Source: Wickerhamiella versatilis (lineage: Eukaryota). Taken from it: 64,000 bases of DNA. Below are positions 4,223 through 59,361 of the stretch, piece after piece. The stretch is taken from the NCBI GenBank assembly GCA_030867685.1, contig JAQOWU010000008.1:62001-126000 (forward strand). The letters run 5' to 3'. A program made the translations under genes and the position numbers. Position 1 is the stretch's first letter. Each line of letters begins with the position of its first letter. The notes beneath the pieces were generated by a model. The model was not told where the DNA came from. It saw only the letters and a list, made by a program, of their open reading frames with translations, and searched no databases.

Positions 4223-4254
4223 GGGTCGTCTCGTTGTCCAGCCAGTCTCAGGTG
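4223..4254 (+). repeat. Dispersed 34-bp element copy
   Basis: CGTTGTCCAGCCAGTCTCAGGTG ends about 10 bp from the stop codon of the acyltransferase gene. Confidence 0.7.
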
Positions 4255-4263
4255 TTGACTGGA

Positions 4264-5766
4264 CTACACTGCTGGACGATTTTCAGAATAACACTCGCGA
4301 AACTTAGCGTCCTCATCAAGATATCGCCAAAGAGGCTCACTTGCCGTAACATGGACATCAAGTGCTCTTCTTTCACGTTTCTCAATTGACTCTGACCATC
4401 CATCGAGTACCAAAGCCAACGCATCAACCCGAGAAATGATCGTGTAAGGAGGCCCTGATAATGACGGCAGAACCGGATTACCGGCTCTATCAGTGTCGAA
4501 GTCGCACCCTTGGTACATATCAAATGCTGACCATTGACTCACAGTGAAATTTCCGTAGGCAAATGAAAAATCCATAGAGATTAACCCTTTCTGTGGCTGA
4601 GCTGCAATCCACCGCGGGGTTTTTCTCATCAATTCTCTATCCACAGAGCGTATCAAATCGTGCATTGCCTGTGCGACTTTCCACAATGGTTGATTCATGA
4701 GTAGATCATGACTGAACTGGGTGTACACCGGATGTACGCCATTTCCAAAGTACTGGTTAGAAAGGCCTAATCTCTCAGGTTTCCTCATGTCAACTGAGGC
4801 AAAAAAACCCCGGAAAAGTTCTTCTGCAGCCTGGCTCTCACTTTTGCCTCTTGATATTAGGAACTTGACACGTGATCGATAAATAGACTGGTCTAGGTAT
4901 GCACATAGTGCCTCAAACGTAGATATCCAACGATCTTCTTGAGGGTTTGTAGCCTCTTTCTTTATTGTGAAAAGGTCATCTTCACTAAAATGCAACGTGC
5001 GGGCCAGAATAGGAAATTCAGCTTGACTTAACGCGACCGGGCTTTCGCCTTCTTTCCTCAAGCAGTAAAAACGTGGATTGTATTGCAACGCCTCGTTTAG
5101 CTCCTGCGCTGACATGTCACTTTTCTCTTGGAGATATAATCTCGTTATAGGTGGATCCGAAAGCGAAGCCGTAGAAGCATGAGATAAGTCACGATAGAGC
5201 TCTGCAAGGTGTCTTGATAACATAAAAAAACCACCAGCATCCGTAGCAGTATGGTGTATGCGGATACCGAGTGCTACTGATCCGCAGGCGAATCGTGTAT
5301 GTTGAATACTAAAGATCGGGTCACGGAGAAACCCCTCGAATGAAGGATCAAAGGGGGGCGTGAGACTATCTCCTGAACCCGGTAGCATCTCCATTATGAT
5401 TCTTCCAGAACTGGAGCGGAACTCTTCCAATTTTCTGGTACATTTGGCTTCCAACACAAGCGTACCTTTACCGATGTCAACGATGGACCGCCTGCCATCA
5501 TCTTGTGCGCAAACACGCCCCGTTAGATGTGGGTAGTAGTCCAGTAGAAATTCTGTGGCTTTTGCAAGACGCTCCACTGGCATAAAGTCAGAAGTATCAA
5601 TATCTTGTGGCTTAGTGTAGACGAACACATTGTCAACCGGTACTGCATGAAATGCGAGGAGGTCCAGCGGACCCAAGTTGAAAGGGCTCTGTAACTTTTC
5701 GACTACCTCCCTGCTCGCACAGCTTACAGGATGTTCGCCGATGATAAGGACTTCAGAGGGTGCCAT
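4264..5766 (-). CDS. BAHD/transferase-family CoA-dependent acyltransferase
   Basis: LLDYYPHLTGR, QHTRFACGSVALG, catalytic HxxxD (HTATD), divergent DFGWG-like DFDTD. Confidence 0.85.
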   Translation of the reverse strand: MAPSEVLIIGEHPVSCASREVVEKLQSPFNLGPLDLLAFHAVPVDNVFVYTKPQDIDTSDFMPVERLAKATEFLLDYYPHLTGRVCAQDDGRRSIVDIGKGTLVLEAKCTRKLEEFRSSSGRIIMEMLPGSGDSLTPPFDPSFEGFLRDPIFSIQHTRFACGSVALGIRIHHTATDAGGFFMLSRHLAELYRDLSHASTASLSDPPITRLYLQEKSDMSAQELNEALQYNPRFYCLRKEGESPVALSQAEFPILARTLHFSEDDLFTIKKEATNPQEDRWISTFEALCAYLDQSIYRSRVKFLISRGKSESQAAEELFRGFFASVDMRKPERLGLSNQYFGNGVHPVYTQFSHDLLMNQPLWKVAQAMHDLIRSVDRELMRKTPRWIAAQPQKGLISMDFSFAYGNFTVSQWSAFDMYQGCDFDTDRAGNPVLPSLSGPPYTIISRVDALALVLDGWSESIEKRERRALDVHVTASEPLWRYLDEDAKFRECYSENRPAV

Positions 5767-6266
5767 GTGTGCGTAAAGAGACTCATTACTAATTTATCGG
5801 TCTGCTTATATGGTCAAACTATATGCGGTCATATTGCGTCTGTTACTTCACTAAAGCTTGAGCTTCTATGGGTGGTATGGTCCTTTTTTCGAAAGTTTAA
5901 AGGATGCTGTGGCATCAAAAAGCTTTTTTCCTATTGTTCTTCATACTATAGTAAGTTAGTAGCTCACTATTCTGACAAGCACTCAAGTCACCTTGCCCAC
6001 ACTTCAGCTTATAAATATACAAAATGATTGTGCCGTCTAAGATAATCAAAATCAAAAGTAACATCATTTCCACAGAGACTGGAAGCTAGCACTACTATTA
6101 AAGCAAGCACACATAACTAAGATACCAGATATTTTTGGAGCAAAGCGTCCTTTTACTCGTTCACGCGGTACAGCTTCTGCATTGCTTTTGTATGCCCGAA
6201 GGCTATCTGAATCTCGGCATCAGCGCAATATAGACGATCAACCATAGCAACGCTCGCATTATCCTG

Positions 6267-6848
6267 CTACCTCCTATTATATTCCATCAGAGGCGAACTT
6301 CGACATGTAAGTTGAAGAATAACCTCTATCTGCCTTATCGCTTCTTTGCTCCACTCAGCTGAGAAAATAACCCCGGTGCAAACATTCACTATTTGTTCAG
6401 CAAGATCACGCGGACTAATATTCACTGACCGCCAACGCTCGGCAATCTCTGTATTCTCGAGTAGTTCAGATACAGCTTCAATATATTTTGTAGTGACCTG
6501 CTCGGTCAACTCTGGTCTTAAAGCCGCAACAGTAACAGAAATTTCTCTGTAGTTCTTGAAGGCACTGATAATCTCACCTGTCCTGACGATCGAGTTTAGA
6601 AGCCTGTTCTCTATTGGCAGTGTATCAACTGAGATATTACTGAGAAACTCACACCAAAGTATGTCTCTATGATATTCGATCGTTGTTAAAAGTAAGTCTT
6701 CTTTTCCGTGAAAATAAAAGTATACAGCCTGCCGCGAGTAGCCTGCCGCCATGGCCACGTCATCGATACTTGTCCCTTTGAACCCCTTTTCAGCGAACAG
6801 ATTATATGCTGCAAGCATTATCAATTCTTTAGATGACCGGCTTTCCAT
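6267..6848 (-). CDS. TetR/AcrR-family transcriptional regulator (bacterial type)
   Basis: Canonical TetR HTH ILxAAxxLFAEKGFKGTSIDDVAxAAGYSRQAVYFYFHGKEDL followed by a helical ligand domain; 193 aa; intronless. Confidence 0.9.
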   Translation of the reverse strand: MESRSSKELIMLAAYNLFAEKGFKGTSIDDVAMAAGYSRQAVYFYFHGKEDLLLTTIEYHRDILWCEFLSNISVDTLPIENRLLNSIVRTGEIISAFKNYREISVTVAALRPELTEQVTTKYIEAVSELLENTEIAERWRSVNISPRDLAEQIVNVCTGVIFSAEWSKEAIRQIEVILQLTCRSSPLMEYNRR

Positions 6849-7668: not shown

Positions 7669-9100
7669 ATGTCGTTCAGGGAGACAGAAGTTATAACTGA
7701 TAATCCACAAAAGGGGTTTCAGCAGCACATTTTTCCAGCAAATGTTACATCTGATGATGTGGTCGTGCCGCCAAAAAACCCCAAATTTTTGAGCACGATA
7801 CCCTTCCAAATAGCCGTAGCATGTGGTGTCTCCTTCACGGCCCCTGGAATGTGGGATGCTCTGAATAACCTGGGCGCAGGTGGTGCCGCTGAGCCAACCG
7901 CAGTTTCCGCAGCAAATGCTTTATTATATGGTCTATTTACGGTGATATGTATAGCTGCAGGTGCCATTAACAATAGAATAGGATTACGGTTTGGCCTAGC
8001 CCTTGGGGCCATTGGTTATCCGATCTATGGTGCTGGGCTGTACACCAACAACAACCATTCAACTACATGGTTTTTGCTCTTTGGGAGCGCCCTCAATGGT
8101 ATATCTGCTGGATTCTTCTGGGCTTCCGAGGCTGCTATAATCATTGGGTATCCCAGCCCTCAAGAGCGTGCTTTCTACCTTGCTTTATGGCAAACAGCAA
8201 AAGCTGCAGGGCCTATTGTTGGCGGTGCTATCAACCTAGGCTTGAATGCCCAGTCTTCGACTAAGGGTTCAGTGAGCAATGGAACCTATATTGTATTTAT
8301 TGTAATAATGTGTCTCGGCCTCCCTATCTCGTTATTGCTTTCCCCTGCAGAGAAGGTACAGCGTAAGGATCACACCTTGGTTATCGTGAATAGACAACCT
8401 AGTTGGAAAAAAGAGTTTCAGGCAGTGTTTTCTGTGCTTAGAACTCGTCGGATGTTACTTCTCATTCCAGCATTCTTTATCAGCTACTTCTATAATGGTT
8501 TCTCTAGCACTTGGCTCACTACTTACTTCACTGTAAGGTCACGGGCATTCTCATCATTTTTCTCCAATTTTGCTGGGATCTTCAGCTCCTTTATAATTGC
8601 CGCACTTCTTGACCACCAGTCCATCTTTATAAAGACGCGGGCGAAGATAGCCTTCTCATGCATCTTAGTGATACTTATCGGTACCTGGATATGGGCCACC
8701 ATTCTTCAGAAACAATTCTATGATGCATCCCAGCCACCAATCTTTGACTGGTTCCAAGGTGGATTTGGGAAAGCTTATGCGTTAGTCTTTTTTTTGGCAA
8801 TTTGGTGGCCAAGCATTTCAGCAATTCCTCTACTGGATCATAGGCCAATATGCCAGTGACATTTCAGCGCTGTCATACTACTCTGGCATTCTGCGAGGAT
8901 TTGAGGCACTGGGTCAAACAGTTGCTTGGGCCATTCAATCGAATGGTAATGCCAACCATTTCATCAGCATTGGTCTCAATTTTGGAATTACAGTTTTGTG
9001 TATCTACCCCACCTGGATTGTGCTTTCAGAGCTTGAGCATAGCCATGAAGTGACAATTACTGCTGACGAGCACTCTAACGAGAGCACGCCTGATGTGTAA
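7669..9100 (+). pseudogene. UNC-93-like (DUF895) MFS transporter with a +1 frameshift in a T8 run (pseudogene or assembly error)
   Basis: PGMWDALNNLGAGG and GFFWASEAA motifs; removing one T at 8788-8795 restores FFWQFGGQAFQQFLYWIIGQY...GILRGFEALGQ through to TAA at 9098-9100. Confidence 0.8.
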
Positions 9101-9624
9101 ACAGCACCCATTATTTACCATTAATTATTCTCGTTAGCTTTTTTTCCTTTTTCTTCATACTTGAATCAATTAAGAAGCTTTCCCGGATTAATACTCCACC
9201 CTCTGTCTTTGGCTCCACGATAGTCATCACGCAGCACATAACTCTTAGAGCCAGGTTCTCTACACATTTCAGTCCTCTATGTGTTATCACTGACCAGTAT
9301 GTACTACTATGTACCTCAGTATACTGGAAGACGCAATGATGAGTCCCTGGAAACCCGAGAAGAAACCCATTTCTTAGAGCATGTTCGCGATGGAGGAGGA
9401 CTTCTCATTGCCATCATTCTCCTTCTGATTTTCTGCCATTTTATATCCGGTCTTCGGTTGATTATTTCTCTCATTCCTTATATTTGCCAAAATCGTAATG
9501 TGGCACTTTTAATCACTATAGGGGTGGTTTACTAAACGAGAAATTGCGCCATATGGAGCGTTAGTTGCGCTACAAACGTATGTCATACCTTTGTAAGAGC
9601 GACGAGTCTCATCAAGTGATGATG

Positions 9625-9657
9625 GCTACTTACATTATCAAGCTAGTCTCAGATAGT
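9625..9657 (+). repeat. Dispersed 34-bp element copy
   Basis: GCTA-CTTACATTATCAAGCTAGTCTCAGATAGT, 28/34 with one gap. Confidence 0.75.
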
Positions 9658-9968
9658 GAGGGGGCACTTGCGTGGCTCAACTAGAATATGTTGCTGGATC
9701 AGACAAATTCCCAAGTAGATCCTGCGCACCGATCGTTAGTCATAACAATATTGGCAAGCAACGCTTTTCGGAACGGCTCCGAACCTCAACCAGAGCTCCT
9801 TGTAAGTTGCGCTTTTGCCTGATCAGCTACAGAGCTAAATTATTTCCAACCATCATACTCCGATAAATCATCAACGGTGAATCTGCAGTTTACATCGCAA
9901 TTCAACGTATCTAGATCTTTGACTAACCATCCTTTGCAGAATTTTCCTGTCCACTTCACAGATCTCAT

Positions 9969-13963: not shown

Positions 13964-14240
13964 TGGACTATATGTATTCATCCTGAACTATATAACCATT
14001 AGGAATTTTAATTCTTAGGACTTAAATCAACAAAAAGTTGGTGATGATTTCTATAGCATTTGGTATTTAAACTCCTGATTCTATACAAATTTACTCGACT
14101 TCCTTCCATACTCAGCACTAGTATTTGTTCATAAAGTTTTCAATTGCTTGATCTCACTAAGTAAAGCTTTGATAGATACTCTCCATGATAACAGTTCTCT
14201 TTTTGTCTCAGTATCAGTTAGTGAAATATCAATATTGTTA

Positions 14241-14258
14241 TCCAACCGGTCTCAGATA
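14241..14258 (+). repeat. Dispersed element, right part
   Basis: TCCAACCGGTCTCAGATA, 20 bp from the stop of the serine hydrolase gene. Confidence 0.7.
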
Positions 14259-15809: not shown

Positions 15810-17269
15810 TCAACAGAAAAATCTCCACCTTGGGTCCTTGTCTCCACAATAATCACCCTTCAGCACATAACTCTTATCGTCAGGCTCTTCACAGATTCTT
15901 GCTTTCAGTGTATTATCCCTGACTAAAATATACCTTAGTATAATAGAAGAAATAATTGTGAGCGCTATGAATCCCAGGGAAAATCCATTCCCCAGAGCAT
16001 AACGTGGTGCTTGATCCGGACGGTATACCTGGGTGCCGATGATTGCTCCAATATCGCCAATTGATATCTGGATTGCAGTGGCGACTGCACGTTTAACCTG
16101 CCCCGAAACATTGCTGGCTAACCAGGTGTAGGCAATCGAAGCTGCTGGATAAAGGCCGCCGGTGGCAAAAATAGTGCCGAGGTATTGTATTCCTGGTCTC
16201 AAGTCCGAAATTAGAAGAATGAATCCAATGGCTCCGACCATTGCCGAGAGTGAAATTGCATAGCTACGTGAGAAACTTGTTTTTTCCACGGTCACGGCAA
16301 CCAACAGAGATGCCACGAATGCTACGGCATAAGGTGGCACGCTCAACAATTGCGCACGAGCAGACGAATATCCCATATTTTTGATTATAGTAGGAAGAAA
16401 TAGTGACATAGAATAAAATGGTAATGCAATCCCCATCCATACGAGTGTATACAGCCAAATTCGGAAATCCTTGAACGTCTCTCGAACCTCTGACCATGTA
16501 AATTCGTCATTTCTCAGAGAATCATTACCCACAGATAACCTTTGTAGTAAAATAGCCTGCTCTTGCTCTGAAAGGAACTGACCATAAAAGCCACCAAGAC
16601 GGTAGCACATCCTTCGATAACAAATATCCAGACCCAGCCGCTCTGTCCAGAGACTCCGCCCATATGTCCTATTGCCCAGGCGAGTATACCACCAAAGCCA
16701 CCCGCTAGTGATGTACTCACGAAAAACAGTGTTAGCCTGGACAGCAATTCATTACGTGGATACCACATAGACAAATAGAAAATACAGCCAGGGAATATCC
16801 CTGCCTCCGTAGCACCTAGAGCAAACCGTACACCAAGCAGCCCTCCATAATTCTTCACACGACCCATCAGCGTCATAGCAATGCCCCATGCCAGCATTAG
16901 CGTGGGAAGCCATATTCTTGGACTAGTTTTCTTTAATACGATGTTCGAAGGGATTTCAAAAATACAGTATGCGATAAAAAATATTGTTAAGCAAAGCAAA
17001 TAACCTTCTGAAGAAATTTTTAAGTCTTCAGTGAGATTCTCCAACTTTGCGTTCCCAATGTTAGATCGGTCCAGGAACGAAAGAAAAAAGAAAAGCGTTA
17101 TAGGGGGGATAATACGTATATCAATTTTGCACTTCAAGGTTCTAACCTCTGGGTCCCCATAATTCAGCTTTCTACTTTCATTCGCCGCATCTTCTATGTT
17201 CACGACGGAAAAGGACTTCTCATTGTCATGATTTTCCGTGTAATTTTCTGCCACGTTATATCCGGTCAT
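15810..17269 (-). pseudogene. ACS-family MFS transporter (Tna1-like) broken by an out-of-frame deletion
   Basis: FLDRSNIGNAK...WIFVIEG in one frame and FLSEQE...KDPRWRF in another; the usual LPDxP segment is missing at the junction near 16581. Confidence 0.8.
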
Positions 17270-17420: not shown

Positions 17421-17440
17421 CAGGGGGCTATCTTGCAGTG
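17421..17440 (+). repeat. Dispersed element, left part
   Basis: CAGGGGGCTATCTTGCAGTG. Confidence 0.65.
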
Positions 17441-18690
17441 GAGGAGCCCAGCGTGGATATTAATGAAAAGCTTTATTGGACAAACAGTATGTCTAGGTAT
17501 ATATTTGCATACCGTGGCGGCTAGTCGCAGCTAAGTTTGTTGCTGATGTGCCGACTTGGGTACGTAATTGATCTCTGGATGCATCTTAAGCAACTGATTT
17601 TCATCTGTTCTCTGGCATAAATTTTGAAGAAGAACCTCCAGAAAAACGACCGATGTTTTGCCGCTTCTCTAAGCTTTAGGCTAAATAAGGCATCAGAAGT
17701 ATGTTTATGTAATATTGTCAACTAATTCAAGGCAGCTACGGCCATATCCAGCAGGTAACTGGGCTTCCCGTCCGATCAGCCATACATAAGCTGCTGAGAG
17801 CCTGATTCAGTATTACGGTGGGAGACCACGTGAGAACGGCAGGTGCTGTAGTTTTTTTTGCATCTTTTTTTACCGTCTATTGTCGCGTTGTTTTTTGCCT
17901 CTTTTTCTTGTATCTGGCTTAATTTTGATGCGAAACATTTAACCTTTTTTGTAAACGCGGTGATCGAACCTCAAACATTGGTAAGATTTGACAAGCACGA
18001 TTACTTTCAACGTACAGAGTCAAATCTCGCAACTAACTAGCAACGCTCTTAAGAGTGCTATCAAGTAGATTTAGTGATGTATAATGCTCTTTTCATGTCG
18101 AGAAGTTTCTGCCTTGTAATGACCACCTAGTCTTGAACAGTGGCTTAGCCTCTTTTCCAACATATGCCCAGCTCCAGCTTTGAGAGATTTCCAGTTGTTA
18201 TCTATCCTGAATGTGTTCGATTAATCTACGTAATACCACATTGTAACTTGGATGGGATCAATTTATTTGTAGTGCCAAATTAGATAGTATATTTTAAAAT
18301 GACAGTTATTCAATCCTGTACCAACGATACATTTTTAATAGCATACAGTTAAGTCATTTAGATTGCTGGCCGAACGTTTAATAAGAAGAGTGGCGTTGAG
18401 GAATGACTTACTTTGTATATATATTGTCCGGACACACGTGTACATATATGACAAATTGGATAAAGTTGGTAGCTATCAATATACACGAAAAGGAGATGTA
18501 CATGACCTAGTCATAGTGAAAGGTATTAGGTTCATTTTACTGATACATTGAGGCCTCGAAGCGACATTAGCCGATATAACCCTAAAGCTTAAGAAATTTG
18601 GATGATTGTTTCAGGGGTATGAGCTAATTTTGCAGTGGTCGCTTAAATAAAGTGGCAAAATTCACCAAATGATTCATCATTCACTCGCTC

Positions 18691-19327: not shown

Positions 19328-19361
19328 GCTGCCGTGCATCGCCCAGCCAGCCTTAGGTAGT
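19328..19361 (+). repeat. Dispersed 34-bp element copy
   Basis: GCTGCCGTGCATCGCCCAGCCAGCCTTAGGTAGT, 25/34 ungapped, mismatches mostly transitions. Confidence 0.65.
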
Positions 19362-19774
19362 GAAGTAGACATAATGATAACTACTTCCTGCACGAGGATG
19401 CGGCTTATCTTACTGATTAGAACTCACGCCATTTAAATAGCATTTAAACAATCAAATGATACCGCATTGCACTTACCAAACACCAGTAATACTGGCATGT
19501 CTGCTCAGATGGACTAGAAGGTTTTCACGGCAGGGTGATAAAGAAGAAAAAACTTAATATTGAGAGGGTAGCCACTCAACTCATCGGGTTGCTAGTAATT
19601 ATTTCAGACCTAATTGCTTGACCATTTCTCTGTTCGTAAGTGCTATCACATAGATAGACCATGGTAAGTCATCACGCATGTCAAATCACATGTTGTTGCA
19701 CCATCGATAGAGATTAGGCGAATAAGCAGACTAGAGATTAATATTCGCATTTTTACTCACTATAAAGCAATGTT

Positions 19775-20266
19775 ATGGCCGCTGTGTTCTCAGAAATTGA
19801 AATTGGTGGCCGAGTAGTCGATAATCGCGTTGTTCACGCATCGTCTGATAATCGACGAGCCCCTTGGGGGAGACCATCTCAATTAGCCAGAAAGTTTTAC
19901 ATTGAAAGGTCTCAAGGTAAGTCTCTCACCATTTCAGAACCTGTGGGGGTTGGATATAGTGCTGGCACATCGTTATTCGCTCCTCTCATTGCAAGTTCAG
20001 AACAGATAACAGCATGGAAGGCAATCGTTGATTTAATTCACCAATTAGATGGCAGGTTCTATATTAAGTTATTTCATCGTGGGCGAATTACCACTAAAGG
20101 CGTTCTGCTACGCAACCAGGTCTATTACCAGGCAATAAAACCGAAATTCCATATTGGAAAAATCAATGAGGAAGTAAAAGCATTCCGAGATTCCGCAGTG
20201 TGCTCACTCGTATATATATTGAAAGATCTAAAAAACCAAGATATATCCCACATAATACTTAAATAA
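19775..20266 (+). pseudogene. Truncated, degenerate Old Yellow Enzyme (N-terminal half)
   Basis: VFSEIEIGG..DNRVVHA, FY.ERS, ISE, AWK.IVD.IH..DGR.YIKLFHRGR; ends before the catalytic HxxNGY motif. Confidence 0.7.
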
Positions 20267-22631: not shown

Positions 22632-22947
22632 CGAGAAAGCTCATAGCGTTCCAAAGACCAAGAGCTGTGAAGTCACAAATTCCTAGACTTGTGGCGTTAA
22701 AAAATGTTGAATGATACCACTTTGTTTAGTTGGCTGTCTCGCTTGACTCTGTCTTCCTATCATTTAATTTTTTGTCTTCTCTTCCAAACTTTTTCAGCAG
22801 GAAGATTTCCATCAATCTCTCTTTGAGCTCAAGAATGGAATCAGAGACGAAAGAATTTTTCAAAAGAATGATAATATCACTACAATTCACGTGACCATTG
22901 TAAATTGGATGGGTGATACAGAATGCTGCTAAATGCCGTGTATTTAG

Positions 22948-22981
22948 GCTATCTTGCGTTGTACAGCCAGTTAAAGTTAGT
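22948..22981 (+). repeat. Dispersed 34-bp element copy
   Basis: GCTATCTTGCGTTGTACAGCCAGTTAAAGTTAGT, 27/34 ungapped. Confidence 0.8.
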
Positions 22982-23123
22982 GTAGTGCAAATTTTCGAGA
23001 TCACCTTTTCATCAATCCGGATTGGATTGATCTATGACGATAATTTATATAATTGATGTGTGAAGCAAAACTACGATAATTATTTGTGAAAATGCTATTA
23101 ATTCGAAGATAATATAAGAAAGA

Positions 23124-29792: not shown

Positions 29793-29836
29793 CAGTAGGT
29801 TATCTTGCATTGCTATCTTGCAATCAGTCTACAGAC
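29793..29836 (+). repeat. Dispersed element with a duplicated left arm
   Basis: CAGTAGGTTATCTTGCATTGCTATCTTGCAATCAGTCTACAGAC. Confidence 0.7.
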
Positions 29837-32309: not shown

Positions 32310-32347
32310 TGCGCACCAAACTGGTTAGAGAATGCAAGATAGCCCAC
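32310..32347 (-). repeat. Dispersed element copy (reverse)
   Basis: Minus strand GTGGGCTATCTTGCATTCTCTAACCAGTTTGGTG. Confidence 0.75.
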
Positions 32348-35357: not shown

Positions 35358-35380
35358 GAGACTGGTTGGACAATGCAGAT
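35358..35380 (-). repeat. Dispersed element copy (reverse)
   Basis: Exact 20-nt core TGCATTGTCCAACCAGTCTC on the minus strand, 35358-35377. Confidence 0.8.
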
Positions 35381-35764
35381 TGATTTATCAGGGTTTCTCT
35401 TGGTATCGCATCATGTTTCGATGGCAGTGGCATTTGGCGGGCAGGATTTCCCGGGATAGCTTGCTTAACTGCCTATCGTTTCTCTATGGTTCGATATTGC
35501 TACGCCTATAGCGGCTATATTAATTTATTTTGGGATTCATTGTCATTATCCAAATTCGAAACTTTCAATAGCCCAATACTGCCTATATCTCCAAATTTCG
35601 AGCTTGTTACTACAACGTTATTGAATTGTCTTTAGAAATGCAACTATTTCTGTATCATCACATCGCTTATACAATGCAGCTAGTGGGGAAAACCTCGCTC
35701 CCAGAGTCCTTATCTGAAATTACTCAGCGTGAATGTCCAAACTGTGACAAATCCTGTAATTTTT

Positions 35765-35798
35765 GTCATCTTGCAGTGTCCAACCGGTCTCAGATAGA
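35765..35798 (+). repeat. Dispersed 34-bp element copy
   Basis: GTCATCTTGCAGTGTCCAACCGGTCTCAGATAGA, 29/34 ungapped. Confidence 0.85.
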
Positions 35799-35938
35799 GT
35801 GAAGGTCACTATAATATTCACCCTCGTGACGTGATGAACCTAAAAAAGCACAATCGTGACTTTAAGGGAATTGCTAATAAAGTATGGCGATAAGATTAAA
35901 TCATGTCGTGATTATTCTAAGTTCCGAACAGCAAGAAT

Positions 35939-39532: not shown

Positions 39533-39551
39533 TATCTCGCATTGTCGAATC
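39533..39551 (+). repeat. Dispersed element, partial copy
   Basis: TATCTCGCATTGTCGAATC, 16/19 to consensus. Confidence 0.55.
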
Positions 39552-41554: not shown

Positions 41555-41590
41555 GGGCGACATTATATAACCCAACCAGTCTCAGGTGGT
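41555..41590 (+). repeat. Dispersed element copy
   Basis: GGGCGAC...CCAACCAGTCTCAGGTGGT. Confidence 0.7.
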
Positions 41591-41889
41591 GAAATAATAT
41601 CTCGAGATGCCCATGGCGTCCATGAAGCACAAATGAATCTCGCTTTAAACGCGACCTAATTCCTAGTACCCTTTGCAATCCAGAATGCACCTTACTAAAG
41701 ACATTAAGGGGTCTTGCATGAGATCGGAAGTTTCCTGCCCTATCCCAGACACATGCAGCAATAGTACAGCCGGTTTCGGAATGCTTGAGGGAGACAGTCA
41801 CGCGCGCAAGAGCTTCACTTACCTAGATAATCTCACAGGAAATCTACCAATGTATAATATTAAACTTAAAAATATCGAAAATACTAGGC

Positions 41890-47905: not shown

Positions 47906-48313
47906 TCAAACCAGCAAATAGCTAAGGATATCACACAAGAATTAAGTGCTTTAATGTCGTTTGCACCGTTAAAGAACCCAGACGCAGCCCAATGCAGGAT
48001 AGCCCACTGGCAATAACACCCATTTAGGTAATGAGTATATCTTAGAAATCCTCCCGTTTTCCCCGCACAAAAGAACTTGGGAACAAATTGATACTCATTA
48101 AATCAAACCAGCAAATAGCTAAGGATATAACACAAGAATTAAAATGCTTTAATGTCGTGTCGTGTGCACCTCATCTATCGTTCAAGACCCCAGGCGCAAC
48201 ACGGTCGAAAGTTGCGTTAATTCCCATTTAGGTAATGTGTATATCTTAAAGATCTTCGGGATAGGCAACCCCCAGTCGCACATTAGAGGTGGGGAACGAA
48301 TCGACGCTCATTA
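47906..48313 (+). repeat. Degenerate tandem duplication of a ~200-bp non-coding unit
   Basis: TCAAACCAGCAAATAGCTAAGGATAT.ACACAAGAATTAA at 47906 and 48103; both units contain CCCATTTAGGTAATG and end ...CTCATTA. Confidence 0.85.
47991..48009 (-). repeat. Dispersed element, left part (reverse)
   Basis: Minus strand CAGTGGGCTATCCTGCATT. Confidence 0.7.
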
Positions 48314-49638: not shown

Positions 49639-49773
49639 GAGAAGGAACTTGGAATTGAACGCCTAAAACTCAGCTGCGCTGCTTTAATTATTTTTTGGTA
49701 TTTTATGTATAGTAGACATTGTAGCTTTTCGTTTTTTTGGCCGACTATATTATACTGTACCAGAACTATGCAG

Positions 49774-49789
49774 ATCTTGCATTGTCCAG
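49774..49789 (+). repeat. Dispersed element, partial copy
   Basis: ATCTTGCATTGTCCAG. Confidence 0.65.
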
Positions 49790-50851: not shown

Positions 50852-52488
50852 ATCGTTACTATTTGAACTTAGTCTAGATGAAATACTGGCGGGATACGAA
50901 CAATATGAGAAAGTGGTTCCCTATAGAGTACAAACGTGGATGTATGCATATTCTTTGGAGTTGTGGAAGAAGGACTAGATTCGCGATGATCGGGAATCAG
51001 TATAATGCCGCACACTACTTCCATTCCGTAATAGGGGCTTAATATCATACAATTGCTGGAAGCTGCCCAAGGGCTGTCTGTAACATAATACATACAGCTG
51101 TCTAGCTAATGCAGCAATGAACAACAGCATTATTTCAACTAAGACCCTAGGGAGAATCTCCATAGAATGTCCTTCGTCAATACTCTTCATTTGATACTGC
51201 AAATTGGCCTCAGCAGTTGGAGGTGTCCTTTAGCATATAAGGAGCTTAATCATACTAAGTCACCTGCAAGGTTTGCTCAAGCTCTCAGGAGACTAGATGA
51301 TGTGCCCGTAAGGCCAATACTTTAGCCGGATTCTTGTTATATTTCGTAGACAATCATCGAGTGGCCTTTATAATGAGCGACACATCTCTGAGATAGACGG
51401 TGCTGGTTTTATTTCCATTTGGTGTTTTAAACAAAGGGTTATATCTTCCTCGGATAAAGGTAACTAGATCGGCATTAGTCGCGTTATCAGGCATCGATTT
51501 ATCTAATCTACAACCTGACGAGCAGCTTAGATAGCATGCATGCCTTAAAAACTGCGATCGCCTAGTTCGCTGAACTTTCGATATCAGAGTGTATAAGACG
51601 TCTTTATCCGAAGGTTTATTCAGATGCAGACTTTGCTCCAACTTTCGCTAGACACTATGGTGCCATCAGGCAATTTGTGGCACTAAATGTCTGTAAACCT
51701 GAAAAGTATATCAGGTGTCACAAATTTATAGGTTATAAAGCACCTCAACCTGAAATAGCTCTTGACTGGTTAGTATAATCACTCGGAGAATGACATTTTT
51801 CAAAGTCAGTGATGAATCTCTAAGAGTGCTAGTGAACACAGCGTGTGATGCCCTGATTCCGTATCTCGAGTTAGCTTTATCTGGACAACCGTGGTGTCTG
51901 GTTGCCACAGTTTCTTTTCAGCTGCTGTGCATGGCTCTCAACATTGGTAGCAACGTCTACACTCCATTGACTAGATTTAATGAAGATTTAAGAATGGGCC
52001 GTTACAATCAAATTAGCCTTCCACGTACCACCAATAGGCCGGATATTGTATTGTAACCAATGATCTGCTTGTATAGCAGCGTTTAATTTTGTCTTTTGGG
52101 CAGTATCTCCGAATAAGTACTTACACTGCTTTGTGATTTTATAGCCATTATATAATCATCCGGATGTACCGTTGTTCCGGCGGATGACGTCGCGCAAGCT
52201 ATTTTTTGGCGGCAGTTCTTCAGCTATTTTACTCACAGTGGATTGATTAGAATATACAGACATCGGAATGATCAGCATGTGAAAAATATGGAGCACAATA
52301 GAACCGGAGCCATTAGTGTATACGGAGGTGGAGGCACATCTGCGCCTGCGTCCTGGCTAGCCGTTTTTCCGCTGTGGTGAAATGACGGGCCCGGATCATT
52401 GGTAATCATCTGAGCCTCGACGCGTTGTGTGGATCGACGGTGACTCGGGTGATTGCTACAATAATTACGTAGAGGAAGTTGTGCTTTG

Positions 52489-52522
52489 GCTATCTTGCGA
52501 TCTCAAACTTGTCTGGGGTAGT
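52489..52522 (+). repeat. Dispersed 34-bp element copy
   Basis: GCTATCTTGCGATCTCAAACTTGTCTGGGGTAGT, 25/34 ungapped. Confidence 0.7.
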
Positions 52523-53302
52523 AGATATCTCTATTTAAAACTTAGCTGAAGTAGTCCTCACAGCTTAAAGCACTTCTTTTCTTCTTGTTCTCAGATCATG
52601 ATGTTAGAGGTTATACACCGAATATAATCCTGCCCTAGCTTGTCAAACAGGTATGCTTCCGAACCGAATCGTGCATCCGATCGAATTACTCATCACATCA
52701 TCACGGACGAAACCATTCGCAAATCAAGTTTTGACGGGAGTTTTTCGGGAATTTTTAATTTTTAATATGAGGATAAGATATGAGGAACCCAAATGGATAC
52801 ACCAATTCGTAGATCAGAGCCAGAAACTCCGTGCGTGATGTTATCAGGATTAGGGCATCATGTGTACTCCACCTTCCTTATTGAAGATGATCTTTAGTGC
52901 ACGAAGAGCAAGTTTTCCAAAAGTAAAGCTTTTTTATTTTCTTAAATCTTCCTCCCAATGCAGAAATTATGGGTACTAGGCTAAGAACCCCGACAAAGTA
53001 AAAAGAGAGAGTGTATATATGAACTCGTCACTATTTCGTTGATCCACACCTAATCCAAACAGAGCAATGATCGCTGGTTGGAATTAAGTCTTTTACATTA
53101 AGAAAAAAAACACGAACCGTGAGAGTATCTTACTGTCAAGAGCTTGAACCATAATTATTGTATTGCAACCATTCTCGATCAACCGTATCACGATTTGCGT
53201 CACATACGCAAACATTCTGTGTTATTTAAGGTAAGCAGCCTGCATGTAACCCCGCACTGTTGATGTATTTAAGCAGTAACTTTTGGTACTCACCTACTTG
53301 AA

Positions 53303-54436
53303 ATGCTCTTCTCATCGCTAATTGCTATCTCTCTTACTGCTGCTGCACCTGCGGGTGAAGAAGCGCTTTTAGAGAAGAGGTCTTCTTTCCCTATTCCTTA
53401 TATAGGAGAATCGTTGAGGGACTATATGCAACAGTTGGTGGGATGGGTAGTTCAACTGCCGCTCATAACCGACGTTGGTAATTTTGATCGCTTAGTATCG
53501 GCAATTCCCACCACTGACATCAGCTTCAACCTCAATTTCTTGCAGCATACATCAAAGACGGATGATATTCCAGGTTATAACACTGACTTTGAACCGGTTG
53601 ATGGTATCGACTCAGCATCGGTTAGATGGTTGGCTGAGGTTGACGGGCGCACAAAGGATGACCCCGTTGTCTTGTACTTTCATGGCGGGGGGTATGTTTT
53701 AGGCTTCAACCCTGCTTTCGCCTCATTTTGGGAAAACGTGTGGAAGGACTACAATACTAGAAGTGACAGGCTCTCCGTCCTTCTTGTTGACTACGCGATA
53801 GCGCCGAATGAAGGCGTTTGGCCGAAGCCTCTACAGCAAGCTGCTGGTATCTATAACAAACTAAGTGAAACTTCAGACAACGTTATTTTAGCGGGTGACA
53901 GTGCTGGTGGACATCTCGCCTTGAGCCTTTTGCGTCATATCAAGTACCCGTGGGAAAATGTCCCCGAGATATCGGCTGGTAAGCCACAGGGACTCGTAGG
54001 CCTTAGTCCTTGGGTGAACATATGGCCTGATCAAGGCAAGGGCATAAAGAACGGCACCTATGCCACCTATGATGGTCTGGATATTTTGAATGCAGGTCTC
54101 TCGTCAGCCATGGGGAACATTTCTGTCCCCGATCTTGAAACACGCAACTCTTCTCAGATGAACTTTTTCAAGGACTATATTAACTGGGAGGAGATTCTTC
54201 CAGACTCCGCGAAAACATTCATTTCTTACGGTGATCAAGAGGTGTTGAAAGGGGATATCGAGACATGGTTAAACATCACCAATCTGCAGGATTCTCAGGC
54301 CACTATTTACCGGGACCTAGCTGGAAATGATAAAGCAATACTCTCCTCGGGGACCCACGATAATGTGGTTGTAAGCGCAAAGAACTCCAAGGGATATGAT
54401 AATCTTGTCGATTTCTTGACCTCCAACTTCGCGTGA
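53303..54436 (+). CDS. Secreted HSL-family esterase (Say1/Mug180-like), copy 1
   Basis: Signal peptide with EKR site, LYFHGGGY, GDSAGG, LSPWV, E.L, H near the C-terminus. Confidence 0.88.
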   Translation: MLFSSLIAISLTAAAPAGEEALLEKRSSFPIPYIGESLRDYMQQLVGWVVQLPLITDVGNFDRLVSAIPTTDISFNLNFLQHTSKTDDIPGYNTDFEPVDGIDSASVRWLAEVDGRTKDDPVVLYFHGGGYVLGFNPAFASFWENVWKDYNTRSDRLSVLLVDYAIAPNEGVWPKPLQQAAGIYNKLSETSDNVILAGDSAGGHLALSLLRHIKYPWENVPEISAGKPQGLVGLSPWVNIWPDQGKGIKNGTYATYDGLDILNAGLSSAMGNISVPDLETRNSSQMNFFKDYINWEEILPDSAKTFISYGDQEVLKGDIETWLNITNLQDSQATIYRDLAGNDKAILSSGTHDNVVVSAKNSKGYDNLVDFLTSNFA

Positions 54437-55146
54437 TTTGTTTCATAGCGATTTACTGAAGTGGAGAACACTAAAATACATGAAATCTCGTTTAATAGAA
54501 GCGTAGACTGCAGCCTGGTGTTTGTTCTTTTAATATCTGTAATCTTCAGTCAAAGTGCATAATGACGTGCTCCAAAATCTCACTGCATCAAGCAATGAGA
54601 AGGGGCTGTAAGATAGTACTACTTGTAGATGCTTTAGATATATCGGCTCTCTTGTTGCTTCTTGATTATTTTCTTTCACGGCTGTTTCTTCTTAATATGA
54701 CCATCAAAGATAGTACCTCTACTTCTCTGTCCTTACTATTGGTATAAAGAAGCAATACGCGATCTTCCTCTGTGATATATGCTACCAGTTTGATGCGATA
54801 ACATGAAGCATTCTAACAAGCAATCTCCGAGGGCCAAGGTTGCTATCAACTAAGACGACTAGTCTACGTCGATTAATGCGAATGTCGCCTGCGATAAGTC
54901 GACGGATTATATCAGACGGGAAATTAAGGCCACCTGCATCTTAGACACGTCGCAATCATTGATGGGTACTTAGCTGACAGATCAACATCCATACTTCAAC
55001 CGACGCAGTTCTTCTATTGACTGCACCTAGCAAGGTCTAAGCTATATCTAGCGAGCTCATAGCCAACAATTAAGTACTCATTATGCATAGTATGTCGACT
55101 TAACTGGCGTAGATTGCACTCCATATCAACATAAATTTGTATGCGA

Positions 55147-55181
55147 GGGCTATCTTGCGTTAGCACCCCAGCCTCGCGTTG
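55147..55181 (+). repeat. Dispersed element copy
   Basis: GGGCTATCTTGCGTTAGCACCCAGCCTCGCGTTGT. Confidence 0.7.
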
Positions 55182-55887
55182 TCAAGTCGAAAATCGAAAA
55201 TAGCAGCTGCATTGTGTGCCCACCCTCTTCCGACTTCACTATATTGCATAGATGGCACTGGCCTGAGTCGTGCTTTGACTTTTCTAATCCATCGAACAGG
55301 ATAGTCACTGCATAATTCTAGTGACTATATAATTGCGAGTATACATGTATGAGATGGGATCTGCGGTCGGAAGAACCTCGTATTAAAAACTCCTTACGTA
55401 CTCTTCGTCCGATTCGGACTAATCAATATGCTTATCCCGGGTTCAGGGTTCACTGTCTCATCCTTCTTTGAATGGAAAATCTCGATTTACTAGGGGCGAG
55501 TCTTCAAAAAAGTATACTTACATCATATTCTTCAGCCCCCAACTTCGAAAAAAATATGAGTATTAGGCTAAGTACTCTAGCAAGGTTAAAAGCGATAGTA
55601 TATACACCGAAACTCATCACTAATTGGTTGATCTACAACGGAATCCAAACAGAATGAAGATCATTGGCTAGAGTCGGGTTTCCGACGCCACAATAGTGAA
55701 GACGAACCATGAGGATATTATTCTGTAAAGGGCTTCCAATTATAATTCTTATCTCGCAATGATTTTCGATCGGCTCTATCGCGACTCACGTTGCAGAAAT
55801 ATAAAATTCACGTTATATGAAGTAAGCAGCAAGCAGGCGTTTGCACACCGTTGAGCAGTGGGTCTGAGTAAGTAGCTGCCTATACGA

Positions 55888-57018
55888 ATGCGCGCCTCGT
55901 CTCTAATTGCTATCGCTTTCACTGCTGCCGCACCTGCAAGTGAGGCGCTAGTAGAGAAGAGATCTTCTTTCCCTATTCCTTATATAGGAGAATCTTTGCG
56001 AGATTACCAGCAAAAATTCGTGGGATGGATAGTTCAGCTGCCACTCATAACAGACGTTGGTAATTTTGATCGCTTAGTATCAGCAATCCCCACCAATGAC
56101 ATCAACTGGAACCTTAATTTCTTGCAGAATACATCAAAGACGGATGATATGCCAGGTTATAACACTAACTTTGAACCGGTTGATGGTATCGACTCAGCAT
56201 CGGTCAAATGGATGGTTGAGGTTGATGGACGCACAAAGGATGACCCCGTTGTTTTGTACTTCCATGGCGGCGGATATGTTTATGGCTTTGAACCTTCTTC
56301 TGCATCGACTTGGCAAGAAATATGGGAAGATTTCTCTACGAAGAGTGAGAGGTTGTCCATCCTTCTGGTCGACTACGCGATAGCGCCAAAGGAAGGCGTT
56401 TGGCCAAAGCCTCTACAGCAAGCTGCTGCTATCTACAACAAACTAAGTGAAACTTCAGACAATATTGTTTTGGTGGGTGACAGCGCTGGTGCACATCTCT
56501 CGCTGAGCCTTTTGCGTCATATGAAGTATCCATGGGAAAGTGTCCCCGAGATATCGGCCGGTAAGCCACAGGGGTTTATAGGCTTCAGTCCCTGGGTAAA
56601 CATATACCCTAATCAAGGCAATGGCACAAAGAACGGCACGTATGTCACATATGAAGGTCTGGATATTTTGAGTGCAGATCTCTTGTCAGCCATGGGGAAC
56701 ATTTCTGTCCCCGATTTTGAGACACGCACGTCCTCTCAGATGAACTTCTGGAAGGACTATATTAATTGGGAGGAGATTCTTCCAGACCCTGCCAAAATAT
56801 TCATTTCCTACGGTGACCAAGAAGTGTTGAAAGGGGATATCCTGACATGGCTAAACATCGCAAATTTGCAGGATTCTCAAGCGACCATCTACCGGGACCT
56901 AGCTGGAAATGAGAATACATCAACTCCCTCGGGGACCCACGATAATCTGTTTCTGAGCGGAAGAACTTCCAAAGGATACGGTGAGCTAATCGATTTCTTG
57001 ACGCACAACTTTGCATGA
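55888..57018 (+). CDS. Secreted HSL-family esterase (Say1/Mug180-like), copy 2
   Basis: Colinear with copy 1 along its whole length; HGGG, GDSAG. Confidence 0.88.
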   Translation: MRASSLIAIAFTAAAPASEALVEKRSSFPIPYIGESLRDYQQKFVGWIVQLPLITDVGNFDRLVSAIPTNDINWNLNFLQNTSKTDDMPGYNTNFEPVDGIDSASVKWMVEVDGRTKDDPVVLYFHGGGYVYGFEPSSASTWQEIWEDFSTKSERLSILLVDYAIAPKEGVWPKPLQQAAAIYNKLSETSDNIVLVGDSAGAHLSLSLLRHMKYPWESVPEISAGKPQGFIGFSPWVNIYPNQGNGTKNGTYVTYEGLDILSADLLSAMGNISVPDFETRTSSQMNFWKDYINWEEILPDPAKIFISYGDQEVLKGDILTWLNIANLQDSQATIYRDLAGNENTSTPSGTHDNLFLSGRTSKGYGELIDFLTHNFA

Positions 57019-57257
57019 CTTTTTTATAGAAATTGAATCTAGTAGACTATATACAATGCCTTTTATTTAATTTGATCAACAATATAGTCTAGAAGCTCAG
57101 ATTCCGATCTGGTTTTCACTGTATCTTAGATCTCACAGAAATCTTAACGTCTTGATATTGCTTATTACAGTATTATCTATAGTGATAAGCCAAAGTGTGC
57201 AACTTTATAGCCCAAGCACTATGATTTTTATTGTGGGATGAGCTGCAGAACTAGAAA

Positions 57258-57285
57258 GCTATTGCATTGTCCAACCAGTCTGGTG
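57258..57285 (+). repeat. Dispersed element copy
   Basis: GCTA then exact TTGCATTGTCCAACCAGTCT (57262-57281), 30 bp from the permease stop. Confidence 0.8.
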
Positions 57286-57310
57286 GGTTATGAGTTGATG
57301 TTTTAATCCT

Positions 57311-59361
57311 TTACTCTGTATTAAGGCTGTGGTTGGGCTTCAAATAACTTTCTCTATCCGACTTAATGCTCCCTTCACGCTGCATCCTGCCTTGATGGTA
57401 AGCTTCCACAGGCGACTCTAAGTGATATAACCACCACTTCAGTTTTCCGACAATCGTGTTTCTCTGACGGTGAAGTTTAAGGTATGACTCAGCCTTTTCT
57501 GAAGCCATACACTGCTTTCCAGTACCCACTGGCCACACTGCATCCGTGGTGAGATCGATCTCGTCTAATGAACGAACCTTATCTGTCTTCCAATGAGTCA
57601 ATTTCCAACCACACATGCAAACAACCCAAACAATGCATCCCAGCAAGGTCCCAAATGGTTCTGTCCAAGCACAGGAGCCGGTTGGGCATGAGCCATATAT
57701 TTCAGCGGCGAATAGGAATAACCCTAAAACAATAACAATTATGGGAAGCACCGGAAAAAGATACTGTCTGAATGGCAGGTCGCTCTCAGGTATATTTTGA
57801 CGACGCATCGCTAGTCGAAACCGAAGAGAAAGTACCCCTATCGATGTCCATGTCAGGATTGCACTGCAAGATGTAACGTTCATGAACCATGTAAAGACTG
57901 TGGATGTGGGGAAGGCTGCAGCGATGAAAACAAGGCCACCTAAAGCTGGATATGTTAGTACGTCCGTTCAGAGCATTCAAAGTGCTTGTGCTTCGACTTA
58001 CCAGTTGTGCAAAGTTCTGACATGACCGGCACTCCCCAAGAATTTGTCCATGAAAAGACAGAAGGAAGCATGCGGTCTTGGGCCATAGCCATGAGCATGC
58101 GCGATGCAGCATAAAAGCATGCATTTAACGCTGATATGATAACCACAAGTAGTATTGCGTTAATAAGCTGATCTGCAGCTTTAAAACCTGCCCATCTAAA
58201 TACGAGCGTAATAGGTGATACTGCCGTTAGCATTCTGTGATTTCAAATCTGGAATTGAGAAAACTTACCTGTTACATCTGAATCGTCGCTTGCTTGTACC
58301 AAATTAGGGTCGTTGGCATTGACTGTCAATGCGATTACAAAAACTGTAAGCATTATTAAAAAAATTATACGGTAAAAAGTCATTTTTGCCGCTGCTGGGA
58401 TATATTTGTGGGGCTTCTTTGTCTCTCCTGCCGTCAAGGCAACCATCTCCGTGCCCCCAAAGCTGTAAAACGCGTAGCCTCCAGCAAACAGACCGGGGAA
58501 CCCCCCTTTGAAGTTCAGGCCGCTATGGAAATTAGATAGGCCTGGGCCTTCCTTAGCAGCGGTCGCCACTCCGTTGAAAGCCCAAACCAAGCCTGTCACG
58601 ATATACGCAAGAAGTAGGGATACCTTTATCGCGCTGCACCAATACTCTACCTCACCATACCATTTCACATTCATAAATTGTAATAATACAACAGGGAAAA
58701 GCACGGGAAATATCCATACCCATGCTGGAGGAGACTGGTCCCAAAATGCAATGATAAAAGTACAAGCGCTCAATTCGGAAGGAATACTCTGTAAGTGTTA
58801 GCAATGATCAGTGAATCGAGGTTCTCCAAATACTTACTAATGCCCATTGGAGGTAATAATTAATTCCAACGCTGAATCCCTGAGGCAGTTAGTATGATGA
58901 TACGCATAAATATATCTTTCCTTTTTAATACTTACGAATCCTGGTGACACAAGACGCTCTGCGTAATGCTGAAACGCACCTGAATGGGGAAGATAAGCTG
59001 CCATCTCAGTCAGACAAGTTACCACGGCAAGAACAAATACAGCAGTGATCCCGTATATCACTAGAGCCCCGCCTGGCCCTGCCTGTGCAACTGTCGCACC
59101 GACTGAGAAAAAGAGCCCTACGCCTATAGATCCACCAAGAGCTAGGAAGGAAATATGGCGAGGCTTTAAAGTCTTTTGCGTCTCTTTATTGCCATCTCCA
59201 AGCAAGCGACGCCAAGCAGGCACGGCCTTATTTTCTGGCAACTCAGAATCGGGTTCGCTATGGATGATGGCTTCTTTTTTTTCGAATTCTTCATCATGAG
59301 CATTATTATGAGGCGTGGATCCCGTTCGCGGGGGCCCTTCCTCAAAAATTATGGTGGACAT
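57311..59361 (-). CDS. APC/YAT-family amino-acid permease with 4 introns (58880-58935, 58789-58837, 58221-58268, 57946-58001)
   Basis: LKPRHI..LALGGSIGVGLF, V..YGE.EYW...IKV, FSFGGTE...TAGE. Each intron has GTAAGT, a (T/G)CTAAC-type branch site and CAG; splicing joins all exons in frame. Confidence 0.9.

Follow-up and report, generated by a model that had tools for sequence, protein, structure and literature searches.

A new family of co-oriented 41-nt repeats in the gaps between gene blocks of Wickerhamiella versatilis

We describe a small, new family of 41-nt repeats in the yeast Wickerhamiella versatilis, located on contig JAQOWU010000008.1 of assembly GCA_030867685.1, positions 62,001 to 126,000—this 64-kb stretch, analyzed at its full length, is hereafter called the window. 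The repeats share a direction along the chromosome, mark the gaps between blocks of genes, and appear to be array-derived. Our favored reading, which we hold tentatively and with a probability of roughly 0.4, is that the copies are relics of arrays, or joints between the gene blocks of what may be a subtelomere-like accessory region. An earlier examination of the letters alone (the sequence-only reading) had seen copies of the element just past the stop codons of many minus-strand genes and had likened them to attC sites, the recombination sites of integrons. Here we present the family, its position and direction relative to genes, the comparison with attC sites, and the tandem arrays on which the favored reading draws, and weigh several other explanations along the way.

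A 41-nt repeat family between genes

The dispersed 41-nt non-coding repeat is a real family. A position weight matrix refined from 13 seeds finds 16 strong copies in the window, each scoring at least 21.8 bits; in 20 simulated sequences, the same matrix gives a mean of 0.35–0.5 chance matches above 10–12 bits. Local alignment to five joined consensus units adds four weak or partial copies, for a total of 20 (Table 1), and pieces of the repeat were found independently by repeat finding, as families D5, D9, and D20 and as the inverted pairs I3, I21, and I23. When the window is scanned by nhmmer with a 41-column profile, the 16 strong copies are recovered and no additional copies appear at E < 0.1; the next-best matches, at 49772–49789 (E 0.25) and 59867–59885 (E 0.59), both correspond to weak partial copies.

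On the plus strand the unit reads approximately GGGCTATCTTGCATTGTCCAACCAGTCTCAGGTAGTGAAGT, and the copies are 57–78% identical to this consensus. They are single units or worn in-register pieces of 0.4–2.1 units; 13 of the 20 start at unit phase 1–9, and their end points, as placed by local alignment, are variable. A comparison of flanks shows no similarity between copies outside the 41-nt unit. At the Rfam gathering threshold no family falls on the repeat, the sole match in the window being a 5S rRNA gene; ARAGORN finds no tRNA in the window, and RNAalifold no consensus fold of the repeat. By our own reading of the consensus, each strand of the unit has a stop in one frame—no frame is therefore open across three units, and an array cannot encode a protein. 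A text search of the literature with substrings of the unit returned chance primer matches only, and on that basis the element has not been found in print. There are likewise no matches to a degenerate full-element pattern or to the unit-to-unit junction in metagenome contigs, and none to the element pattern in 185,579 prokaryote species genomes.

Among known repeats of this size, the REP and BIME repeats of bacteria are about 35–40 nt long and are found, alone or clustered, behind genes and in the gaps of convergent pairs; REP elements are palindromic and occur in both directions. The repeat described here is similar in length and placement, but it does not fold and its host is a yeast-like eukaryote.

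Coding sequence makes up 62% of the window, and every one of the 20 copies falls between genes (p ~4e-9). Of the 16 strong copies, 14 are on the plus strand (p = 0.004), as are 17 of all 20 (p = 0.0026), and the strands of the genes are balanced, with 16 plus-strand features and 17 minus-strand genes. A plus copy lies within 300 nt past the 3' end of 8 of the 17 minus-strand genes, where it is antisense, and past the end of 7 of the 16 plus-strand features (genes, fragments, and the 5S gene), where it is sense. No minus copy follows the stop of any of the 16 plus-strand features; all three minus copies are upstream of minus-strand genes. Since plus copies stand behind minus and plus genes alike, and the gene strands are balanced, the direction follows the chromosome and not the gene, which overturns the claim of a consistent polarity relative to genes.

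The sequence-only reading had listed eight distances between a copy and the stop codon of a minus-strand gene, and seven of them reproduce within a few bases: we measure -3 nt for the BAHD-type transferase (the alignment reaches the stop), 20 nt for the serine hydrolase, 29 nt for the amino-acid permease pseudogene, 107 nt for the Dur3-like symporter, 136 nt for the Soa1-like transporter, 154 nt for the sugar transporter, and 178 nt for the MFS gene at 36158. The eighth, a weak copy near the TetR gene, is an 8-nt resemblance (GGCTATCT) near 6203 that passed no scan. With all copies in the window counted by computer, a bias in orientation stands (17 of 20 on one strand), whereas a bias toward stop codons does not: a stop is found within 30 nt of three copies, where chance would give 1.3 (p = 0.14). 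The further suggestion that the repeat is a 3'-end element is correspondingly weak, the copies being antisense to some neighbors and sense to others.

All five convergent gaps in the window are occupied—the four named earlier (at 14241, 29793, 41555, and 57258) and a fifth, 1162–1610. The chance of this for 20 random placements is p ~0.0015, a post hoc figure computed on the same data; at one gap it treats a gene fragment as a gene, and it counts one weak copy among the five. Convergent gaps make up 9.6% of the intergenic DNA yet hold 5 of the 20 copies; divergent gaps, which can hold only promoters, make up 13% yet hold 1 of the 20. The latter count makes a plain upstream activating sequence unlikely, and the earlier argument against one, drawn from the convergent gaps, is borne out.

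We likewise regard as unlikely a promoter element of a sulfur/nitrogen regulon, in which the repeat would serve scavenging genes as a composite activating or repressing upstream sequence. Genes for sulfur scavenging are abundant in the window (three TauD dioxygenases, a Soa1-like MFS transporter, and an OYE-NtaA/DmoA-type monooxygenase fusion); ten copies lie 130–780 nt upstream of a same-facing gene, one of these genes being the 5S rRNA gene; three copies lie upstream of the OYE-monooxygenase gene; and the motif TCACGTGA is enriched, with 5 sites against 0.68 expected, two of them within 60 nt of a copy. A regulatory role of this kind would have to accommodate the five copies in promoterless convergent gaps, nearest start codons as far away as 917 nt (copy 4187) and 1333 nt (copy 22947), and a 17:3 ratio of directions that an upstream activating sequence does not lead one to expect. 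Further, contigs of the public sequencing run X15 together cover six genes at 23–35 kb of the window, and for four of these the gap upstream lacks a copy.

Comparison with attC sites and mobile elements

The copies set apart blocks of 1–4 genes, and duplicated blocks have copies at their borders, in the order copy 52488, Say1a, copy 55147, Say1b, copy 57258. In this respect the window does resemble an integron: short sites lie between genes, mostly in one direction and sometimes directly behind a stop codon, and they separate small gene blocks, some of them foreign-looking. The idea of cassette boundaries is thus compatible with the arrangement; the likeness to attC is not supported.

The attC sites of integrons fold into imperfect-palindrome hairpins; in RNAalifold, 14 of the 16 strong copies together give 0 pairs and 0 kcal/mol. 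Folded as single-stranded DNA, 80-mers on 17 of the 20 copies average -5.7 kcal/mol on one strand and -5.8 on the other; 300 random 80-mers from intergenic DNA give -5.0 (p = 0.22). An attC site has a pair of core sites, RYYYAAC and GTTRRRY, one at each end. Here 6 of the 16 strong copies hold a lone RYYYAAC-like heptamer, GTCCAAC, in mid-unit, with no partner at the end. Domains of recombinases, integrases, transposases, or reverse transcriptases are found in none of the 80 open reading frames scanned in the window (ORFs; 31 + 12 + 37), and no integrase is nearby. The genes of the window face both ways, and the sites hold no fixed direction relative to a cassette gene, running antisense past eight minus-strand genes and sense past seven plus-strand features; as the direction belongs to the chromosome, and not to the neighboring gene, the main analogy with attC falls. 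Finally, the host is a eukaryote, and the prokaryote genomes gave no match. The attC label is wrong—the tests of fold, core sites, integrase, direction, and prokaryote matches all go against it.

A looser version of the cassette idea, in which a site-specific recombinase encoded elsewhere inserts or excises gene blocks and leaves direct repeats behind, strikes us as the least probable of the explanations considered. It would account for 17 of 20 copies being directly oriented and for blocks of 1–4 genes of which several look foreign (the TetR regulator, the carboxylic-acid-reductase-like gene, and the Dur3-like gene, which is closest to Pezizomycotina among the matches listed), and three copies do lie within 30 nt of a stop codon. 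A length of 41 nt is also typical of recombinase target sites. The copies, however, have no inverted-repeat arms around a spacer and do not fold, no recombinase domain is present in the window, closeness to stops is not significant, and the prokaryote genomes gave no matches; partial copies and in-register arrays are not what recombination would be expected to leave.

Nor is it at all likely that the repeat is a short element that moves or propagates itself (MITE-like, Helitron-like, or retroposed) and survives in intergenic places where it does no harm. The copies are dispersed, have dissimilar flanks, prefer the 3' side of genes, and recur elsewhere in the genome with different flanks, as loose contig ends show (see below); all of this would suit such an element. 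Target-site duplications are lacking, however: the best match between the two sides averages 4.18 nt at 17 of the 20 copies, against 3.93 nt at 400 random sites. There are no terminal inverted repeats and no hairpin, and the domain search described above found no transposase, reverse transcriptase, or recombinase in the window. The 57–78% identity to the consensus argues against a recent burst, and random insertion does not produce a 17:3 strand ratio.

Tandem arrays, relics, and boundaries

Four public sequencing runs were compared with the 22.5–42.5 kb portion of the window. One of these, X24, is an RNA run of raw reads that are unstranded (depth over the expressed MFS gene is equal in both mate directions) and 90–95% like the window, in which only the MFS gene at 36158–37690 is well covered. 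In the X24 reads and in the DNA contigs of a second run, X1, the end of one copy is joined to the start of the next with 10–13 fixed letters between, which gives a 41-nt head-to-tail period. The joint from 32347 back 28 positions to 32320, with 13 letters between, is supported by 58 X24 reads from 30 start places, 52 of which carry one letter string and 3 a variant. Other joints in X24 run from 32347 to 35358 (53 reads), from 32347 to 35357 (35 reads), and from 35377 to 32320 (24 reads). As RNA depth is zero in most bins of the stretch, the joint reads are not DNA carry-over, and the arrays are transcribed; we estimate that they reach some fraction of the RNA depth seen over the expressed MFS gene.

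Junction-bearing contigs of X1 have depths of 16–51, where the single-copy level is about 25, so that genome has only a few short arrays. X1 contigs have loose ends at 32347, 35358, 35377, 35770, and 41593, which indicate further copies elsewhere, with other flanks. The window itself holds worn arrays in register at five loci (4187, 9602, 14209, 35734, and 41555; 1.3–2.1 units), and the likeness of flanks to the unit exceeds that of random DNA, with 11 of 32 flanks at or above the 95th percentile of the null. Contigs of a further run, X15, which we guess to be RNA, end or start near copies: a gene-sized contig ends at 23012, 25 nt short of copy 22947–22987, and another starts 86 nt downstream of copy 35358–35380. 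If the guess is right, the copies lie just outside transcripts.

A separate observation concerns X1 over 22500–42499, where a second version of the region, several percent divergent and of lower depth (for example, 18.8 against 29.5), is present beside contigs identical to the window. This version skips 30070 to 32069 and 32453 to 32717 and has a replaced segment at 36045–36142; the X24 run matches it. Either a second haplotype that has diverged or a paralogous region would account for this version.

The favored reading starts from these arrays. Elsewhere in the genome the unit forms short, transcribed head-to-tail arrays; the copies in the window would be relics of such arrays at the joints of 1–4-gene blocks, added or duplicated successively next to arrays. 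This could have happened in two ways—by the healing and later internalization of former chromosome ends, or by unequal exchange between directly repeated units. Successive addition of blocks next to arrays would lead one to expect a shared chromosome direction, and copies would persist where they are harmless, beside 3' ends and within convergent gaps, and not in promoters. Among the observations that suit this reading are also the in-register tracts, the variable end points, the duplicated blocks bordered by copies, and the gene fragments and pseudogenes of the window.

Subtelomeric repeats of Saccharomyces cerevisiae offer a partial parallel. These include the combinatorial repeats of the X element and the 36-bp repeats in Y'; they are 35–45 bp long, lie near chromosome ends in a fixed direction relative to the end, and occur singly or in short arrays, and some of them bind general factors and insulate. 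Unit size, direction, and array form are similar in our repeat. In S. cerevisiae, however, such repeats are confined to the last one or two kb of the chromosome; here they are spread over at least 62 kb among genes.

A second parallel is with telomere relics. In Pyricularia (PMC8381367, PMC7367193), relics and interstitial tracts are likewise short tandem-repeat tracts in subterminal DNA, mostly pointing as the former ends did and tied to duplications and block boundaries; internalized relics oriented as former ends are described in subterminal regions (PMC8381367). The difference is that our 41-nt unit is only a candidate telomere repeat. Yeast telomere units vary widely, and a 43-nt motif is reported for Pichia norvegensis (PMC7857110), so a length of 41 nt does not exclude a telomere repeat.

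Several points weigh against the relic or joint reading, and the first of them bear on its strict form, in which the unit is a telomere repeat—a version that we consider improbable. The unit has no G/T strand bias, and the depth of the X1 junction contigs is no more than roughly that of single-copy DNA. Of 12 8-mers taken from the unit, none is present among the yeast telomere motifs in supplementary table 1 of PMC7857110. We aligned the unit circularly to seven published telomere motifs on both strands: the alignments to the three Pichia motifs are not significant, and the only modest match, on the opposite strand, is to the motif of Lachancea kluyveri, with p = 0.002 before correction for 14 tests. 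More generally, some 18 successive joints within 64 kb are many, and the subtelomere-like setting is suggested by gene content in a window where no chromosome end is seen. X1 also holds inverted arrangements of units (32347 to 41572 and 22971 to 35358). The statistics on unit phase, like those on convergent gaps, were chosen after the data had been seen, and the consensus was derived from the very copies that it scores.

The last of these points is the pattern of decay, which is not uniform: mismatches cluster in one half of a copy or the other. The variance of the left half's share of mismatches is 0.050 against 0.015 (0 of 5000 permutations as high), with a correlation of -0.56, a statistic that is inflated by indels and truncated copies. 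Such half-wise decay looks like selection on two separate modules, GGCTATCTTGCR and CCAACCAGTCTCAGGTAGTGA. The left 12 nt are identical (12/12) upstream of both Say1 paralogs, where the surrounding flanks cannot be aligned; the full 12-nt GGCTATCTTGCR is present at six loci (22947, 32320, 52488, 55147, 59867, and 17422), and its core, GCTATCTTG, is exact at eight. A position-specific test of conservation (p = 0.008) was discarded as biased, the copies having been seeded on the core motif.

Modular, non-uniform conservation of this kind is one argument for the explanation that we rank second and consider possible, though doubtful: a functional boundary element, in which the two halves are candidate sites for one or two sequence-specific DNA-binding proteins and the element acts as an insulator, a roadblock to read-through, or a direction-dependent barrier, for example to replication forks. 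A barrier that depends on direction would explain the shared direction. The occupation of every convergent gap and the wholly intergenic placement fit such a role, as do the X15 contigs that stop 25 nt and start 86 nt outside copies and the two TCACGTGA sites close to copies. In S. cerevisiae, sites for Reb1 and Rap1 lie between genes, at 3' ends and in promoters, and stop read-through. Our repeat has a similar intergenic, 3'-end placement; those sites, in contrast, are 7–13 bp long and follow no chromosome-wide direction, whereas the repeat is 41 nt long, directed by the chromosome, and a candidate protein site only.

Other observations are less easily squared with a boundary element. No known factor or motif was matched, and what we take to be resemblances to GATA, APSES, HMG, and Ace2 sites are inconsistent across copies. 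A roadblock or insulator needs no chromosome-wide direction—only a polar barrier does, and to our knowledge polar barriers are established at very few loci. The X15 contig 28397–32053 runs through the weak copy in the convergent gap 29513–29941, although this counts only if X15 is indeed RNA. Units that abut in register, with no spacer, suggest the dynamics of arrays over a clustering of sites, and the family looks small, with 16 of 161 X1 contigs lying partly on the 20-kb stretch. We place the boundary element behind the relic or joint reading because the modularity statistic is inflated and because a bound site needs no fixed direction unless it is polar.

Gene content of the window and meaning of the repeat

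The copies are listed in Table 1; strong copies come from the weight-matrix scan together with local alignment, and their neighbors from a table of neighboring genes.

Table 1. The 20 copies of the 41-nt repeat in the window, with strand, extent in units, and genomic context
Position	Strand	Extent and score	Context
1411..1456	+	Strong copy, 1.05 units; 29.7-30.6 bits, alignment score 23	Convergent gap, Aa_trans fragment / sugar transporter; 154 nt beyond transporter stop
4187..4266	+	Worn in-register array, 2.12 units	Right end touches stop codon of BAHD-type transferase (-)
9602..9684	+	Worn array, 2.12 units	284 nt upstream of MFS gene (+); adjoins MFS pseudogene relic
14209..14258	+	1.29 units	Convergent gap; beta-lactamase-family hydrolase (-) stop at 20 nt, TauD (+) stop at 245 nt
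17422..17440	+	Weak partial, left half only, 0.46 unit; local alignment	Site equivalent to copy 9602-9684 in duplicated MFS upstream region
18093..18133	+	About 1.0 unit; weakest of the strong set	238 nt downstream of 5S rRNA gene
19328..19366	+	0.95 unit	79 nt past stop of 185-aa ORF (+); 408 nt upstream of OYE fragment
22947..22987	+	1.00 unit	136 nt past stop of Soa1-like MFS gene (-); TCACGTGA site 52 nt leftward
29794..29834	+	Weak copy, 0.83 unit; left half internally duplicated	Convergent gap, 2OG oxygenase (+) / Dur3-like symporter (-)
32320..32347	-	0.68 unit	314 nt upstream of Dur3-like gene (-); TCACGTGA site 30 nt off
35358..35380	-	0.59 unit	132 nt upstream of OYE-luciferase-like fusion gene (-); in inverted pair I23
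35734..35804	+	1.63 units; top score, 41.3-42.7 bits	
35939..35979	+	1.00 unit	178 nt past stop of MFS gene 36158-37690 (-)
41555..41613	+	1.49 units	Convergent gap, lipase (+) / 241-aa ORF (-)
49774..49788	+	Weak partial, left half only, 0.37 unit	135 nt past stop of alpha/beta hydrolase (+); family D20
52488..52522	+	0.85 unit	780 nt upstream of Say1-like gene a (+)
55147..55187	+	1.00 unit	700 nt upstream of Say1-like gene b (+)
57258..57281	+	0.63 unit	Convergent gap; 29 nt past end of amino-acid permease pseudogene (-); I23, D20
59867..59886	-	Weak partial, left half only, 0.49 unit	505 nt upstream of permease pseudogene
62957..62974	+	Partial, right half only, 0.44 unit	96 nt upstream of SMP-30/gluconolactonase-like gene (-)

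From its gene content we read the window as an accessory, subtelomere-like region of a yeast-like fungus. It has 40–47% G+C, and the 62% counted as coding consists of long uninterrupted ORFs. Sequencing runs that contain its DNA come from an organism of roughly 11 Mb and from food-fermentation metagenomes. Searches with Pfam and NCBIfam identify transporters (a sugar porter, several MFS proteins, a Dur3-like symporter, and fragments of OPT, Aa_trans, and amino-acid permease genes), genes for sulfur scavenging (the three TauD dioxygenases, the OYE-NtaA/DmoA-type monooxygenase fusion, and a frameshifted second luciferase-like monooxygenase), and others, namely a BAHD-type transferase, a beta-lactamase-family hydrolase, two Say1-like hydrolases, a carboxylic-acid-reductase-like protein, and a TetR-family regulator.

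The regulator, at 6267–6848 (-), is of a bacterial type (TetR_N, E = 8.6e-15, with weak matches to NCBIfam ScbR/MftR-type models) and is divergent from an UNC-93-like MFS transporter at 7669–8859 (+), which has a TCACGTGA site 77 nt upstream—this layout of regulator and pump looks bacterial. At 44422–47649 (+) lies the carboxylic-acid-reductase-like gene, whose 1075-aa product has adenylation, carrier, and thioester reductase domains; its nearest full-length named relatives are cyanobacterial thioester-reductase proteins at 30–35% identity, and four other records reach 50–95%. These matches suggest that the gene was acquired horizontally. For the Dur3-like sodium:solute symporter at 29942–32005 (-), the named proteins among the best 120 matches are all from Pezizomycotina (50–57%), with none from budding yeasts, and further relatives among the matches listed are 76–80% identical. 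The fusion of an OYE flavin reductase with an NtaA/DmoA-family FMN-dependent monooxygenase spans 32817–35225 (-) and 802 aa; the second luciferase-like monooxygenase, at 26892–28027 (+), runs across two reading frames and is probably a pseudogene.

The five TCACGTGA sites, at 645, 7592, 22887, 32378, and 59416, are all intergenic; a start codon follows within 380 nt at four of them, and within 80 nt at three of these. The motif, which we assign to the Cbf1/Met4 type, would fit a sulfur regulon of that type for the TauD, Soa1-like, and monooxygenase genes. The 5S rRNA gene at 17734–17854 (+, 77.6 bits) stands by itself, which indicates that 5S genes are dispersed in this genome, not confined to the rDNA unit.

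Gene fragments and pseudogenes lie at 3–422, 703–1161, 9194–9581, 15810–17269, 19775–20266, and 57311–59361; in kind they are the end of an OPT gene, an N-terminal piece of Aa_trans, an MFS relic with an internal deletion, an MFS gene split in two ORFs, an N-terminal piece of OYE, and an amino-acid permease in pieces. Local duplications comprise the Say1-like pair (52841–54496 and 55432–57076, 77% identity over 1.67 kb), a tandem of about 200 bp in an intergenic gap (47906–48100 and 48103–48313), and a 64%-identical intergenic pair of 300 bp (18450–18740 and 37990–38290), 19 kb apart.

Short dispersed repeats with a fixed chromosome direction are unusual in yeasts, and the analysis removes the tempting attC label from this family. 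If the copies are protein-bound, they would be a new boundary element, one that occupies every convergent gap here; if they are joints between blocks, they would offer a route to reading how the accessory region of a food-fermentation yeast was assembled. A bolder proposal, to which we give little credence, makes the co-oriented units functional components of a eukaryotic system by which an accessory gene island is put together or policed. In one version, they would form an array of barriers in every convergent gap, acting by direction on replication forks or transcription. In the other, they would be joints left each time a block of genes, bacterial-like genes included, was captured at a chromosome end or recombination site—the window would then be a readable record of stepwise gene acquisition.

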